From Candidatus Thorarchaeota archaeon (GTDB lineage: Archaea; Asgardarchaeota; Thorarchaeia; Thorarchaeales; Thorarchaeaceae): a DNA stretch of 48,190 nucleotides. This document shows positions 35,553 through 41,269 of the stretch, piece after piece. The position numbers and the translations under genes were made by a program. The notes beneath the pieces were generated by a model. That model searched no databases and had not been told where the DNA came from. It was given only the letters and a program-made list of their open reading frames with translations. The stretch covers positions 1 through 48,190 of the forward strand of contig SDNP01000023.1 of the NCBI GenBank assembly GCA_004524445.1. The letters run 5' to 3'. The first letter of the stretch is position 1. Each line of letters begins with the position of its first letter.

Positions 35553-37991
35553 ATGTCAAGTTCATGGTTTTTCAAAACCCGTCAAATGAGTGAGGCTGGA
35601 AAAGAATTCTTGCTTACCCAAGCTCTGGCAACCCACATGAGGAGTCCTAGAGACCGTGAGTTGGTTAGAGAGAGTATGGCTGAGGAGAAACCACTGGAAG
35701 ACATTTTTTCCTTTTTTGGTGCCTTTTATCTGTACCATTATCAGGGGGTTCGATTGCTAGATATTACTGATCAGGGGGAAATGACTATTGAGGAGCAACA
35801 AGCGCTTAGCGTGAAAGAAAGAGAAATGCTTGAGCTGGAGATACGTCAACTACTGGGCAATAAGCAACGTGAGGAATTAGATGTATCGAAACTGGTTAGC
35901 GAATTTTTCGTGTCAGCAATAGATGATTTTTCGGATAGCCTGCAGGAGCATTCGAAGGTAGTTGAACCACTTATCAACTTGCTTGAAAAATTCCTACAAA
36001 AAATTCCGGGAGAGTATTCCCTGAATGCTGTTATTGATTTTCTTCTAGAAGTAACGGGCTGGGGGGAAAAATGGCGAGAAGAAATCTACATGAAAGCCTC
36101 TGGATTAAAAGAATCTTCTCTTTCCCTAAGGGACGAGCTGCTAAGGAATCATGAGGAAGAAGTGATTGAAAGCACACTAGTCAAACGCGCACAAGACATG
36201 TTATCAATTAATCTGCAGTCTATCGATGAAAATAACTGGAAGGATATGTTGGCGACTCAAACTAAGCATACGGTCGCAGAGGCGATTATTGAAAACCGAC
36301 TTAATACCAGGATATCTCTCAATGGATTTCGTTCAGGGCACAAAATAAGAATCTCTTTGTTAGAAGCGTTTGAAGCTGAAATTGAAATGCCTACCAATTT
36401 GGACTCATTTGAAGCTCAAATGGCTGAACTAGCTTCAAACCTCCTTGTGGACTCATTCGCAGAGAATCCGGACGAGATTTTTGATGCTCTCTCTGTACTG
36501 ACTGAAATGAGAACGGACGAAATTTCCGAGGAGTTAGCCTCCGGGGGAATACGAACAGGACATAACCTGATGGAGGGTCTTTCAATCAAAGCTCCAGATG
36601 AGGAAGAGGATAGTGAATTGAATCTCTCCCGAGAAGAGCTTGAAGAGATTTCGCGTTCATTGCGTCGGTTGGAGAAAATTGAAGAAACATTAGAGAAGCC
36701 AGTGAAAGGAATGCTTCGAGCCAGAGGACTCAGGTCGTCTGAAATCGATAAGGTTTCGGTAGAAACCTTGACAAAAAATCCAAGTGAACTCATTGCTATT
36801 GAATCCCAAGTTATTGCAGAACTAAAAAAGAAGTTGCGTCTACCTACGCCCGAGGAAATCTCACAACTCTTGGAGCTCAGAGCGGAATATGAAGACAAGA
36901 ACTTGGATCAAATTGGCTCTACTGCAGCAAGAATGGGTCAGAAACTTCAATACGGTGAAACTGTGGAGAAACTCAAGTATGACCTGGTTTGGCATTCAGT
37001 TATTTCAGTCTTGAAGAACCTGGCTCGAGTCATCGAAATATACATCCGTTCAAAGCACGACTTGGTCCGGATTAAGGCCATTCTCAAGAGCATCTATGAA
37101 GAGTCAGAATTAGAACTGCAATTTCTTCGTGAGGAAATCCTAATGGATCTTGCCTCAGATCGACTACTCGAAACTAAGCGGGTACATCCTGATCTTGACG
37201 CCTCGATAATACGGTCTTGGTATCACGCACGGCTTCAGGGAATAGATTTGAATACCGCTATTTCCGAAGTTGAAAAGAGCCCTTCACCCGTTTTCAAGGA
37301 CATAATTGAAAAACCACTGAAGACAGCGGATCTCAAGATAGATAATTATGCTATCGCATTCGACCTCATGCAGAGATTTCTTACTAAACAACGCCAAGAG
37401 AAAGTGGAACGGGAGGCTTTGATGATTGAGGCAAAGAAAAGAGAAGAAAGACTTCTCGAGTCCAAGAAAGACGACTTGGATGTGATGAACTATGTTTCGA
37501 CCAAAGCATACACCGCTTTTCGTGCAATTGGCAGAGTGGGCAAGAGAGGGCTAGAATGGAACTCAAACGATGACACCAAGCTGGCGAATCTCCTGTCTTT
37601 CTACATCAGGCGGAATCGAGGACGCACTATCTGTAGTTCCTGCGGGGAAGAGGTATCTGAAGAATACTGTCCTCAGCATGGCTCAGCAAATATCCGAAAC
37701 TCGAATGACATAGACAACTTGAGCAATTTTGTTAGGCAAGCTGTTTCGGATATCAAAGAAGGTCTGATTGGACCTAAGAGTGAATCAATGACATGGGATG
37801 AAGCCCGGTCTCTTGTGAAAAGAGAAATATCCAAACTAAAGCAAAGAGGCAAAATCACAGGAAAAACTGATGTTAACAATTTACTTCCAGGAGAAATCAA
37901 CTACATAGTCGGCCCTGCAATTGCAGAGATCATCGGACAGTATTTCAATGACTCCTTGAAGTACGCTGCTCGTAGTGCAGATATCGCATAG
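35553..37991 (+). CDS. Large hypothetical helical protein with Zn finger (812 aa)
   Basis: Starts 4 nt after the previous stop with a GGGGTGA SD. Glu/Leu-rich helices, CSSC...CPQH. Confidence 0.85.
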   Translation: MSSSWFFKTRQMSEAGKEFLLTQALATHMRSPRDRELVRESMAEEKPLEDIFSFFGAFYLYHYQGVRLLDITDQGEMTIEEQQALSVKEREMLELEIRQLLGNKQREELDVSKLVSEFFVSAIDDFSDSLQEHSKVVEPLINLLEKFLQKIPGEYSLNAVIDFLLEVTGWGEKWREEIYMKASGLKESSLSLRDELLRNHEEEVIESTLVKRAQDMLSINLQSIDENNWKDMLATQTKHTVAEAIIENRLNTRISLNGFRSGHKIRISLLEAFEAEIEMPTNLDSFEAQMAELASNLLVDSFAENPDEIFDALSVLTEMRTDEISEELASGGIRTGHNLMEGLSIKAPDEEEDSELNLSREELEEISRSLRRLEKIEETLEKPVKGMLRARGLRSSEIDKVSVETLTKNPSELIAIESQVIAELKKKLRLPTPEEISQLLELRAEYEDKNLDQIGSTAARMGQKLQYGETVEKLKYDLVWHSVISVLKNLARVIEIYIRSKHDLVRIKAILKSIYEESELELQFLREEILMDLASDRLLETKRVHPDLDASIIRSWYHARLQGIDLNTAISEVEKSPSPVFKDIIEKPLKTADLKIDNYAIAFDLMQRFLTKQRQEKVEREALMIEAKKREERLLESKKDDLDVMNYVSTKAYTAFRAIGRVGKRGLEWNSNDDTKLANLLSFYIRRNRGRTICSSCGEEVSEEYCPQHGSANIRNSNDIDNLSNFVRQAVSDIKEGLIGPKSESMTWDEARSLVKREISKLKQRGKITGKTDVNNLLPGEINYIVGPAIAEIIGQYFNDSLKYAARSADIA

Positions 37992-38322: not shown

Positions 38323-38390
38323 ACAACCTATGGTGAAAGAGATACATATATACAGAGTGCCGAATCCGAAGGTATCATCTGGTGACATTC

Positions 38391-39791
38391 ATGGGGAAGA
38401 AATTCTATCCGCAGGGTGTAATGCCCGCTCTCGTAACTCCATTTAGTAAGGATGGAGACATGATGGAGGAAAGCTTTCGGCAAATAATCGATCATACAAT
38501 AGAAAAGGGAGCTACTGGCGTAGTTCCTGCAGGAACTACTGGTGAATTCGTATATATGCGGACTGAGGAACGAAAAAAGCTTCTACGATTAACTGTAGAG
38601 TATGTTGATGGTAGGGTTCCAGTGGTTGCAGGCACAGGTCAGAATAGCACAAGAGCGACTATAGAATTGACAAAATATGCAGCCGATATCGGTTGTGACG
38701 CCGCTCTTGTAATATCACCGTTTTACCTGCGACCGGCTGATAAGGGATACTTCGAGCATTATCAATCAGTTGCTCTCAAGGGTGGATTACCGATAATTGC
38801 CTACAATATCCCCCAATGCACCTTGGGATGGTTGCAATCAAATGTGCTGGAAGATTTGGCTGAGATTGACACCATGGTCGGTGTAAAGGATAGCAGCGGC
38901 AACATCGGACACACAATAGAACTCATTCAAAAGCTCAGAGGAAAGATGTCTGTAGTCATAGGTCACGATGAATGTTTTCTATCTGCTGTTGCTGCGGGGG
39001 CTGATGCTGCAATAATGGCGTCAGCAAATATCATGCCTGACTTATGGCTGGATATCATGCAGAAAGTGAAAGAGGGCAAGATTGAGGAAGCAAGAGATTT
39101 GCAGCTCTCAGCTCAGACGTTTGCACGAATTGTTACACGTAAGGGCGGTGCTCCTCCAGTAAAGGCCGCGCTCAGAATGATGGGCATAGATGCTGGCAGA
39201 GCAAGGATGCCTCTGAACAGCGGTGGCACTCTCACTGTCGAATTGAGGGATGAAATAAAGGTCGAACTTGAGAAGCTTGGCATTATCAAAAAGAAGGAAC
39301 ATAAGCAACTGAAGACTGACCTTAATGTCATTCAGGCAATGGAAAAAGAAGGATTCAAGATTTCAAATCTAGAGAAAGTCAAAACTTCAAACTCCGAGAA
39401 TGAAACCATATCAGTAGGCATTGCTATCGGTCCAAAGACCGGAGATCTTGGACGTGCTTTTGTCAAACTACTAACAACTCCGAGAAACGGTCACGAGGCA
39501 CTCACAGTAATACTTGAGCCAAACCTTGCAGTGAAGCCCAGTAGTATTATGTGGCCGGCAAGGAGAATCAAATCAATGCGACAAGCATCCATGTTTTATG
39601 GACCCGTACAATCTGGTGCTGGGAAAGCAATATCTAGACTCTTAGGAGAGAACGAGATTCCTCATGACACGTTGAACAGCGAGGTTCTACTGATTGTTGC
39701 GGATGCTGATTTGAATTTCAGGGATCGGAGAGCTGTGACACATGCAACTGAAGAAGCAGTATATGCTGCATTAAGGGAGATATGGAGGTAA
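38391..39791 (+). CDS. DapA-family class I aldolase fused to a degenerate Fae domain (subunit 1)
   Basis: PALVTPF, GTTGE, PFY, YNIP, VKDSSG. C-terminal IGPKTG..G.AF...L..P..GH..L.VI.PNL.VKP...Q...F.GP.Q matches Fae. Confidence 0.85.
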   Translation: MGKKFYPQGVMPALVTPFSKDGDMMEESFRQIIDHTIEKGATGVVPAGTTGEFVYMRTEERKKLLRLTVEYVDGRVPVVAGTGQNSTRATIELTKYAADIGCDAALVISPFYLRPADKGYFEHYQSVALKGGLPIIAYNIPQCTLGWLQSNVLEDLAEIDTMVGVKDSSGNIGHTIELIQKLRGKMSVVIGHDECFLSAVAAGADAAIMASANIMPDLWLDIMQKVKEGKIEEARDLQLSAQTFARIVTRKGGAPPVKAALRMMGIDAGRARMPLNSGGTLTVELRDEIKVELEKLGIIKKKEHKQLKTDLNVIQAMEKEGFKISNLEKVKTSNSENETISVGIAIGPKTGDLGRAFVKLLTTPRNGHEALTVILEPNLAVKPSSIMWPARRIKSMRQASMFYGPVQSGAGKAISRLLGENEIPHDTLNSEVLLIVADADLNFRDRRAVTHATEEAVYAALREIWR

Positions 39792-39796
39792 ATACA

Positions 39797-41269
39797 ATGT
39801 CTGATTTCAAGTTCAAAGGTGTATACCCAGCGCTTGTGACCCCTTTCGATGAAAATGGTGTCGATGAAGAAAAATACAGGAATCTGATTGATTTTACGAT
39901 AAAGTCGGGTGCCACCGGTATAGTACCTTGTGGTACAACTGGCGAGTTCACATCTATGAGATTCGAAGAAAAATTGGACGCAATCAAAATTGCCTGTGAC
40001 GCCGCAAAGGGTCGTGTACCAGTTATTGCTGGGACGGGAGCAGCACATACGGGAGATGTGATTAAGCTAACACGAAGCGCTGCCGAATTCGGTGCGAGTG
40101 CCGCTCTTGTGGTTACACCTTACTTCCTTAAGCCTAGCAACAAGGAAGTGTTCGAGCACTTCGAGAAAATTGCTAACAACTCTGATATCCCGATATTCAT
40201 GTACAACATTCCTCAAGTAACTGGAGTTCCCATTCATTGGACGCTCGTTGATGGTCTGCGAGAAATTGACGGTATAATTGGAATGAAGGATTCAAGTGGG
40301 AATCTAGTCAATCTTACAACAATCCTAGTGAGGAGGCCAGACGACTTTCAGGTTGTGGTTGGGCACGATGAGGTGGCATTACCTGCTCTAGCAAGTGGCT
40401 GTGATGGTGCTATTCTCGCTAGTGCAAACGTATTTCCTGGTAGATATATCAGGATGCAAAATGCCCTGGCAGCGGGTGACCTGCGAGAAGCTCTAATCAT
40501 TCAAAGAAGTATCCAACGAACAGTCAGAATCATCGTAAACAAGGGAGGCGGTCTTGCAGTTAAGGCTGCGCTGAATATGATCGGCATTCCTGTTGGAAAA
40601 GCAAGACCTCCTTTGATTGAAGGAGATGTCTTGAGCTATGAGGATATTGATGAGTTACGTACCTGTCTAGAAGACCTGCAACTGATTCCTCGGGGAAGAG
40701 TCACATTCAGGGCCGGTGAGAATTCTATTGTGGCTGAGGCGTATCCGAAGGCTGTTGGCTTAGTTCCCGACTCTGTAGATGATATCAGTCTGCTACATGG
40801 TGAGTCACTCTGTGGTGGAGGAACAGAGGTTGCCCATGTTGATTTGATTATGGGGTTACGAGATGGGCCTATGAGAGAGGCATTGAAGAACGCTGGAAAG
40901 ATTAGGGATGGCTTTCACTCGTCGAATACTATCAAGGGCCTGGAACCAACCACGGTCTTTGCACCAACAGTTACTGTGACAACCGAGAAGCATCAAAAGC
41001 TCATCTATGATGTTGCACAGAAAGCCGTTTCTGATGCGGTTTCACGGTCGATAACGGATGGTGTAGTACCAGAGGAACTAGTTGACGATCTCATATTAGC
41101 TGTCAATGTGTTTGTTCATCCTGATGCTACTAATCCCAAAAGGGTTCACATCAACAACTTCAGAGCAGTACGTCATGCATTACGGAGAGCAATTGAAGGT
41201 AGGCAGTCACGAGATGAGATAGAAGCTCGAATTGATTCAGCTAGGCATCCATTCGCCTACAATCCTTAA
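39797..41269 (+). CDS. DapA-family class I aldolase fused to a Fae domain (subunit 2)
   Basis: PALVTPF, GTTGE, PYF, YNIP, MKDSSG. C-terminal GESLCGGGTEVAHVDLIMG...AQ.AV..AV...G..P....DDL....VFVHP.A...N...A...A....RHPF matches Fae. GGAGGT SD. Confidence 0.88.
   Translation: MSDFKFKGVYPALVTPFDENGVDEEKYRNLIDFTIKSGATGIVPCGTTGEFTSMRFEEKLDAIKIACDAAKGRVPVIAGTGAAHTGDVIKLTRSAAEFGASAALVVTPYFLKPSNKEVFEHFEKIANNSDIPIFMYNIPQVTGVPIHWTLVDGLREIDGIIGMKDSSGNLVNLTTILVRRPDDFQVVVGHDEVALPALASGCDGAILASANVFPGRYIRMQNALAAGDLREALIIQRSIQRTVRIIVNKGGGLAVKAALNMIGIPVGKARPPLIEGDVLSYEDIDELRTCLEDLQLIPRGRVTFRAGENSIVAEAYPKAVGLVPDSVDDISLLHGESLCGGGTEVAHVDLIMGLRDGPMREALKNAGKIRDGFHSSNTIKGLEPTTVFAPTVTVTTEKHQKLIYDVAQKAVSDAVSRSITDGVVPEELVDDLILAVNVFVHPDATNPKRVHINNFRAVRHALRRAIEGRQSRDEIEARIDSARHPFAYNP

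Follow-up and report, generated by a model that had tools for sequence, protein, structure and literature searches.

Complementary retention of Fae-site residues in a tandem pair of aldolase-Fae fusion proteins from Thorarchaeota suggests a shared, composite active site

Results

A conserved pair of aldolase-Fae fusion genes

We analysed a 48,190-nucleotide stretch of DNA from a Thorarchaeota-type Asgard archaeon (contig SDNP01000023.1 of assembly GCA_004524445.1; the whole stretch is called the window, and its source genome, which is 90% complete, G000). In the window, two adjacent genes on the forward strand, referred to as copy 1 (type 1) and copy 2 (type 2), each encode an aldolase domain followed by a domain of the formaldehyde-activating enzyme (Fae). 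A Pfam search placed PF00701 (DHDPS, E 1e-72 to 1e-73) ahead of PF08714 (Fae) in both open reading frames (Table 1), and these two domains were the only Fae matches in a genome-wide search of G000. The two proteins are paralogues only about 35% identical, and their Fae domains retain complementary parts of the canonical Fae site, which suggests that the site may be shared between them.

Copy 1 ends in TGG AGG TAA, and its conserved Trp-Arg codons double as a Shine-Dalgarno-like motif for copy 2. The list of open reading frames starts copy 2 at an upstream ATG at 39782, which would give a protein of 495 aa. Because 8 nt separate the GGAGG motif from the ATG at 39797 and the layout TGGAGG-stop-(5-10 nt)-ATG/GTG recurs in most of 21 thorarchaeal loci, the real start of copy 2 is probably 39797 and not 39782, with the ribosome-binding site inside copy 1. 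This layout is the usual signature of coupled, equimolar translation, and translation of the two copies is predicted to be coupled. Contigs from salt-lake metatranscriptomes (two studies) contain 151-224-nt pieces of both genes, none of them validly spanning the junction between the copies; DNA carry-over is possible, and these pieces do not prove transcription or a shared transcript.

Constant co-occurrence, which the first-pass annotation of the window expected of an obligate pair, is what the wider comparison gave. Of 300 genomes sampled from the phylum, 76 belong to the window's family; 71 of these had Fae matches, nearly all exactly two (E about 1e-30), and none had a canonical Fae. Copy 1 lay directly upstream of copy 2 on the same strand in 20/20 thorarchaeal loci fetched, from at least 15 genera, with a spacing between a few bases of overlap and a gap of up to about 36 nt; the orthologues in these 20 genomes were 60-86% (copy 1) and 67-94% (copy 2) identical to those of the window. 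Two other Asgard families, f8 (G007) and f21 (G053 and G044), also have tandem pairs in which type 1 precedes type 2 and the motifs are divided in the same way. Thorarchaeal genomes with a single match have the gene cut by a contig end, and one 93%-complete thorarchaeal genome has neither gene. Wherever the contig permitted a check, a degenerate type was never found alone.

Table 1. Positions of the gene pair and its features in the window
Feature	Position	Strand	Description
Copy 1 (type 1)	38382..39791	+	469 aa; DHDPS-family class I aldolase, linker and truncated Fae-like domain (open reading frame, Pfam)
Copy 1 aldolase domain	38412..39260	+	PF00701 at residues 11-293
Copy 1 GTTGEF	38532-38549	+	Aldolase motif
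Copy 1 SPFYLRP	38715-38735	+	Aldolase motif with Tyr107
Copy 1 YNIPQCTLG	38802-38828	+	Aldolase motif with Tyr133; Cys replaces Arg138
Copy 1 VKDSSG	38883-38900	+	Aldolase motif with Schiff-base Lys
Copy 1 Fae-like domain	39393..39776	+	PF08714 at residues 338-465
Copy 1 ENETISVGIAIGP	39396-39434	+	N-terminal stretch of the Fae-like domain; His22 is Ser
Copy 1 ILEPNLAVKP	39510-39539	+	Retained Fae motif
Copy 1 MRQASMFYGPVQ	39576-39611	+	Retained Fae motif
Copy 1 ADAD	39693-39713	+	At the VFxH site; C-terminal arm and HPF absent
GGAGG	39784..39788	+	Shine-Dalgarno-like motif for copy 2, within the final two sense codons of copy 1 (TGG AGG)
Copy 2 (type 2)	39797..41269	+	490 aa from the likely start; aldolase, linker and Fae
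Copy 2 aldolase domain	39809..40621	+	PF00701
Copy 2 GTTGEF	39932-39949	+	Aldolase motif
Copy 2 TPYFLKP	40115-40135	+	Aldolase motif with Phe at position 107
Copy 2 YNIPQVTGV	40202-40228	+	Aldolase motif; Val replaces Arg138
Copy 2 MKDSSG	40283-40300	+	Aldolase motif with Schiff-base Lys
Copy 2 HGESLCGGGTEVAHVDL	40796-40846	+	Fae stretch with His22 and Asp24
Copy 2 Fae domain	40799..41254	+	PF08714
Copy 2 GFHSSNTIKGLEPTT	40910-40954	+	Central Fae segment; PNL loop missing
Copy 2 NVFVHPDA	41105-41128	+	Retained Fae motif
Copy 2 INNFRA	41150-41167	+	Retained Fae motif
Copy 2 SARHPFAYNP	41237-41266	+	Retained Fae motif

The two Fae domains keep different parts of the canonical site

PF08714 matched copy 1 with 85 bits over profile positions 8-135 of 159 and copy 2 with 108.5 bits over positions 2-158 (cut-off 27 bits), and both copies fell under the 118.05 cut-off of the NCBIfam equivalog TIGR03126 (one_C_fae), with 73.6 and 118.0, respectively. 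When aligned with Methylobacterium extorquens Fae (PDB 1Y5Y/1Y60), copy 1 matched residues 16-115 only. It has ENETISVGIAIGP where Fae 1Y5Y has GNEVAHIDLIIGP, with Ser and Gly at the His22 and Asp24 positions, carries ADAD instead of VFIH, and stops about 25 residues short of the Fae C-terminus; the EPNL..KP and RQA..(M)F(Y)GP.Q motifs are retained. Copy 2 aligned over residues 8-168, with GE.L.G...EVAH.DL, VF.H and HPF conserved and a gap at the APNL loop. It retains GESL..EVAHVDL, VFVHP, INN and RHPF, and its central segment has a four-residue deletion of the PNL loop between GFHSSNTIKG and LEPTT. The first-pass annotation had read the same division from the letters: copy 1 without GEAL..EVAH, VFxH and HPF yet with the PNL and GPxQ motifs, and copy 2 with GESL..EVAH, VFVHP, NN and RHPF around a shortened, diverged centre. 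All of its motif statements proved correct in the alignments to M. extorquens Fae, and the shortened centre of copy 2 is the PNL deletion.

We then compared the Fae domains of 21 thorarchaeal copy-1 and 21 copy-2 proteins with those of 7 single-copy Asgard fusions, 51 standalone Fae proteins (from Planctomycetes and others) and 46 Bathyarchaeia proteins. Fifty-three positions were invariant in all canonical groups, including standalone Fae and the single-copy Asgard fusions, and were taken as the canonical set. Copy 1 alone retains 13 of them (Leu53, the EPNL loop and GPxQ) and copy 2 alone 27 (GE..EVAH with His22, Asp24, VFVHP, NN and the C-terminal HPF arm), while 6 are present in both copies and 7 in neither; at least one copy thus has 46/53. 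Over the 53 positions, retention in one copy tends to go with loss in the other (negative association, Fisher odds ratio 0.12, p 0.001), although clustering of the positions along the sequence makes the p value look stronger than it is. The split of motifs is a clade consensus, holding for the 21 thorarchaeal pairs and for 9 further type-1 and 9 further type-2 sequences. Residue counts over 30 type-1, 30 type-2 and 8 single-copy proteins are given in Table 2; the PNL loop as a whole is deleted in 30/30 type-2 proteins and present in 29/30 type-1 proteins.

Table 2. Retention of canonical Fae residues in the two degenerate types and in single-copy fusions
Residue	Type 1	Type 2	Single-copy
His22	0/30	30/30	8/8
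Asp24	2/30	30/30	8/8
Leu53	28/30	1/30	8/8
Pro57	29/30	0/30	8/8
Asn58	28/30	0/30	8/8
Gln88	29/30	18/30 (Thorarchaeota only)	8/8
His of VFxH	4/30	30/30	8/8
His of HPF	0/30	30/30	8/8

The ratio of nonsynonymous to synonymous substitution rates (dN/dS, Nei-Gojobori) was 0.04-0.14 for the Fae domain of copy 1 and 0.03-0.04 for that of copy 2; the aldolase domains gave 0.03-0.05. Purifying selection on both Fae domains is strong, and the hypothesis that they are relics was rejected on these values. An AlphaFold2 model of the copy 1 Fae-like domain had a mean predicted local distance difference test score (pLDDT) of 88 and a predicted template modelling score (pTM) of 0.85, and its top PDB matches in Foldseek were 1Y60/1Y5Y (template modelling score (TM) 0.84, root-mean-square deviation 1.7-2.0 A, 24-25% identity). 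Because the model is confident and matches the Fae fold, the domain appears folded and maintained and is no relic. In the copy 2 orthologue of a thorarchaeal relative (L013), the predicted secondary-structure elements of the Fae domain come in the same order.

An unsplit fusion with a complete Fae domain

A single aldolase-Fae gene, for a protein of 494-503 aa, is found in further Asgard families (f9, f12, f13 and others); its Fae domain carries the full canonical motif set (190-208 bits). The first-pass annotation had counted orthologues that occur singly against an obligate pair; single-copy fusions do exist, but their Fae domain is complete, and so they do the proposal no harm. A search of 1.84 billion cluster representatives returned only about 13 full-length aldolase-Fae clusters, which are the same two degenerate types (P0245, P0251-55, P0241, P0244, P0246 and P0247 among the metagenomic clusters) and the complete type. 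The type-2 proteins form one clade (99.8 by the Shimodaira-Hasegawa-like approximate likelihood ratio test), and the type-1 proteins all fall to one side of an unsupported branch; this grouping fits one old duplication. At 50% identity, type 1 falls into several clusters and thorarchaeal type 2 into one, and the mean identity of the Fae domain is 0.58 for type 1 and 0.69 for type 2.

Several proteins related to, or encoded beside, the single-copy fusions were also noted. Four Bathyarchaeia proteins of 230-233 aa (P0132, P0138, P0142 and P0146) are Fae proteins that share 66-69% identity with the Fae domain of the single-copy Asgard fusion. They are not fragments, because some lie on contigs of more than 150 kb, and they could represent either the donor of the fusion or a split version of it. 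In two Asgard families (f12 with the single-copy gene, f8 with the pair), the fusion gene or genes are directly preceded by a gene for a 315-aa protein (L007:4039-4983, +; L009:7494-8441, -; L030:4026-4970, +; L007 and L030 68% identical). Searches of Pfam, NCBIfam and PDB sequences gave no match for this protein, and none was found in G000; it may be a pathway partner. A different protein of 426-435 aa is encoded directly upstream of the single-copy fusion in f9 (L005:7505-8782, -; L006:7504-8784, -; L008:3683-4990, +) and overlaps the start of the fusion in L008; it had no Pfam match (L005 and L008) and no NCBIfam match (L005).

The aldolase domains and their metabolic context

Every fusion has Thr44/45, Tyr133 and the Schiff-base Lys161. 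Arg138, which binds aspartate semialdehyde in E. coli DHDPS, is present in no fusion, whereas plain DapA outgroups carry (K/S/A)R-T. The active-site segment differs consistently between the types (YNIPQC-TLG in type 1 vs YNIPQV-TGV in type 2). Both copies score above the 206.15 cut-off of TIGR00674 (dapA), copy 1 with 239.6 and copy 2 with 214.4 bits, and public records name both proteins 4-hydroxy-tetrahydrodipicolinate synthase. G000 has no other dapA-grade gene; a third member of the family scores 130 bits and is KdgD-like. A dapB gene (TIGR00036) was not found in G000 by a search that matched 11/14 control genomes. Because Arg138 is missing and no dapB turned up, this name is very probably wrong, and sequence and gene content make it very probable that neither copy is a real DapA.

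At position 107, Phe is found in 20/21 thorarchaeal type-2 proteins, and Tyr in 18/21 thorarchaeal type-1 and 8/8 single-copy proteins. Tyr107 of DHDPS-family enzymes is lent to the active site of the neighbouring subunit. This asymmetry would fit an aldolase heterodimer with a full relay in one of its two sites.

The Fae-Hps profile NF009833 (Hps, 3-hexulose-6-phosphate synthase) matched the two copies with 58 and 86.7 bits, far below its cut-off of 274, the match being confined to the Fae part, and a genome-wide search found no Hps above cut-off in G000. Methenyl-tetrahydromethanopterin cyclohydrolase (Mch) is present in G000, which therefore has one-carbon (C1) metabolism based on tetrahydromethanopterin (H4MPT). 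Two Mch genes lie on one contig (G000:C9:52472-53401 and G000:C9:27286-28209), one of the two canonical (394 bits) and the other divergent (260 bits).

Homoserine dehydrogenase is present in G000 (G000:C28:70457-70993), but a search of this genome (90% complete) turned up no aspartate-semialdehyde dehydrogenase (Asd, TIGR00978). In a set of 300 Asgard genomes, the distributions of Asd and the fusion complement each other only in part: the fusion occurs without Asd in families f12, f13, f21 and f27 and in most of f1, f9 has mostly both, and f5, f17, f20 and f22 have mostly neither. A homoserine route for the aldolase product is suggestive, not decisive.

Discussion

Fae is reportedly a homopentamer that binds methylene-H4MPT in the cleft between adjacent subunits, with His22 as the acid catalyst, a Gln88 that flips on binding and a C-terminal arm that becomes rigid. 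In keeping with this, PDB entries 1Y5Y and 1Y60 each hold five chains of one sequence, and the chains of holo 1Y60 have 168-169 modelled residues compared with 158-161 in apo 1Y5Y. The larger number of modelled residues suggests that the arm orders on coenzyme binding, and the chain counts and lengths give indirect support to the pentamer and to arm ordering.

The best reading of the comparative evidence, which on balance we consider probable by a modest degree, is that the two proteins form a hetero-oligomer with composite Fae sites. The ancestor would have been a single aldolase-Fae fusion like those, complete in their Fae domain, that other Asgard lineages still carry. Following its duplication, the losses in the two Fae domains would have been complementary, each removing one half of the canonical coenzyme site. 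The catalytic side would have stayed with type 2 (His22 as acid catalyst, Asp24, VFxHP, NN and the C-terminal HPF arm) and the opposite wall with type 1 (Leu53, the EPNL loop and GPxQ with Gln88), so that the two genes may encode two subunits of one enzyme complex. Since the H4MPT site of Fae lies in an inter-subunit cleft, a working site would require contact between a type-2 face and a type-1 face, and we therefore propose that the pair is an obligate hetero-oligomer. A shared site would explain why canonical residues are under selection in both degenerate domains. A heteromer would likewise account for the absence of either type alone, for the conserved gene order and coupling, and for the completeness of the unsplit form.

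An obligate heteromer had already been suggested in the first-pass annotation; co-occurrence, coupling, selection and the joint retention of 46/53 positions speak for it, and several observations speak against it. One is that a ring of five cannot alternate two types of subunit. At most two composite sites per ring would then be possible, unless the fused domains assemble differently; alternatively, fusion to a dimer-forming aldolase may have changed the assembly. The seven canonical positions gone from both copies mean that the site, if real, is not fully canonical, and Gln88 is still kept by 18/21 thorarchaeal copy-2 proteins, so the split is not perfectly clean. Some thorarchaeal relatives have both genes in one frame with a single stop between them, and on this basis the copy-1 Fae domain and copy 2 of L013 were modelled as one chain by reading through the stop for the purpose of the model only. 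This pseudo-cofold had a pTM of 0.71, with the EPNL loop at a pLDDT of about 73 and the type-2 C-terminal arm poorly defined at 42-58; it gave no positive sign of Fae:Fae contact, its alignment having 6 rows over the copy-1 part. Finally, as regards the substrate of the aldolase, the gene neighbours of the pair in the window gave no pathway clue, nor did those of the single-copy fusion genes, which are mostly without assignable function.

The strongest competitor of the composite site, although we judge it rather unlikely, is that type 1 is a pseudoenzyme partner: only type 2 would handle the coenzyme, at an altered site able to do without the PNL/GPxQ side, and the type-1 Fae domain would be a non-catalytic scaffold or regulator. 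The two proteins might still associate, for example via the tight dimer of the aldolase, without a composite Fae site, and the Tyr107-to-Phe exchange in thorarchaeal type 2 hints at just such an aldolase heterodimer. Type 1 has lost the catalytic His in every protein counted, and the whole C-terminal arm too; it evolves faster, as the number of 50% clusters and the mean Fae identities show, and thorarchaeal type 2 has its own Gln88. On the other hand, the invariant residues of type 1 are those of canonical Fae (ILEPNL.V.P and RQAS..YGP.Q), exactly those that type 2 has deleted, and a mere scaffold is not expected to preserve coenzyme-site motifs at a dN/dS of about 0.1. We find it quite improbable that the paralogues are two independent enzymes, each with a new function of its own as a homo-oligomer and adjacent because of a shared pathway. 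Low identity between the copies, the complete Lys/Tyr/Thr set in both aldolase domains and their consistently distinct active-site segments would all suit such a divergence. It does not account for the negative association of the retained Fae positions, for the same gene order and coupling in three Asgard families, or for the lack of any genome found with one type alone.

The composite-site proposal also has to be set against the ordinary annotation, by which the proteins would be lysine-pathway DapA with a decaying, functionless Fae appendix. The scores above the TIGR00674 cut-off and the public names agree with it. It is very improbable given that Arg138 is absent from all fusions and present in plain DapA outgroups, that the search of G000, 90% complete, revealed no dapB, and that the Fae domains are kept by strong purifying selection and Fae-like in fold.

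By analogy with Fae-Hps, the complex may couple a pyruvate-type aldol reaction, in which formaldehyde is produced or consumed, to the H4MPT pool through formaldehyde / methylene-H4MPT exchange at the proposed composite Fae site. The simplest candidate, which we infer from this analogy only, would be pyruvate + formaldehyde <-> 4-hydroxy-2-oxobutanoate. A bolder version is a heteromeric machine that transfers a hydroxymethyl group from methylene-H4MPT to pyruvate: at the composite Fae site, formaldehyde would leave H4MPT or be captured onto it and go straight to the pyruvate enamine of the fused aldolase; the resulting 4-hydroxy-2-oxobutanoate would feed the homoserine/threonine node in Asgard lineages without aspartate-semialdehyde dehydrogenase, G000 among them. 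We think this version unlikely as a whole; to our knowledge, this chemistry is so far known only from engineered pathways. The fusion of a ring-former to a dimer-former might also build a D5 or cage-like closed assembly; that such a cage confines formaldehyde, as the first-pass annotation suggested, is pure speculation.

The closest known system is Fae-Hps of methanogens and many archaea (NF009833), a bifunctional 5,6,7,8-tetrahydromethanopterin hydro-lyase / 3-hexulose-6-phosphate synthase, in which Fae is likewise fused to a formaldehyde-making or -using aldolase in H4MPT-using archaea. Other Asgard families carry Fae-Hps alongside the single-copy aldolase-Fae fusion. The present proteins differ in that the partner of Fae is not Hps but an N-terminal Schiff-base (class I) aldolase of the DHDPS/NAL family, that the Fae site appears divided between two paralogous chains, and that G000 has no Hps. 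Compared with M. extorquens Fae, the fold is the same (TM 0.84 for copy 1) and copy 2 conserves His22, VFxH and HPF; however, that enzyme, of about 170 residues, is a homopentamer without a fusion partner and has all motifs in one chain, while each chain here has a partial motif set and a fused 300-residue aldolase. With the DHDPS/N-acetylneuraminate-lyase family (PF00701) the proteins share the TIM barrel, Lys161, Tyr133, Thr44/45 and, in copy 1, Tyr107, but not Arg138 or a lysine-pathway context, and they have a C-terminal Fae domain attached.

The ring subunits Vma3 and Vma11 of the fungal V-ATPase are said to have become an obligate paralogue heteromer through complementary loss, each paralogue of a duplicated ring protein keeping one of two interface functions so that both are needed. 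In heteropentameric Cys-loop receptors, ligand sites exist only at particular subunit interfaces, which offers the likeness of a ring of five with functional sites at specific heteromeric interfaces only. Unlike in these two systems, the loss here hits catalytic and coenzyme-binding residues and not packing alone, and the assembly is a predicted one.

A literature search found no paper on an aldolase-Fae (DapA-Fae) fusion. Relative to that literature, a Fae-aldolase fusion that resembles Fae-Hps but has a DHDPS-family aldolase and a Fae site split over two chains is new. If it is a true heteromer, the pair would be an unusually clean natural case of duplication and complementary loss leading to an obligate two-gene enzyme, with the unsplit, ancestor-like form extant in sister lineages and available for comparison. 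Because it is the only Fae-type function in H4MPT-using Thorarchaeota, the pair probably provides the sole enzymatic connection of free formaldehyde with the H4MPT C1 pool in these archaea, tied to a pyruvate-type aldolase that is itself uncharacterised. Such proteins are listed as DapA in hundreds of database entries, a name contradicted by sequence and genome context, and this misnaming affects Asgard metabolic reconstructions, for example where lysine synthesis is inferred.

The neighbours of the pair in the window are genes for CutA, an alpha/beta hydrolase, an M20 peptidase, a PurE-like AIRC-domain protein and an 812-aa protein without Pfam match; this last protein, which is rich in Glu and Leu, is encoded upstream of the pair (window 35553-37991).

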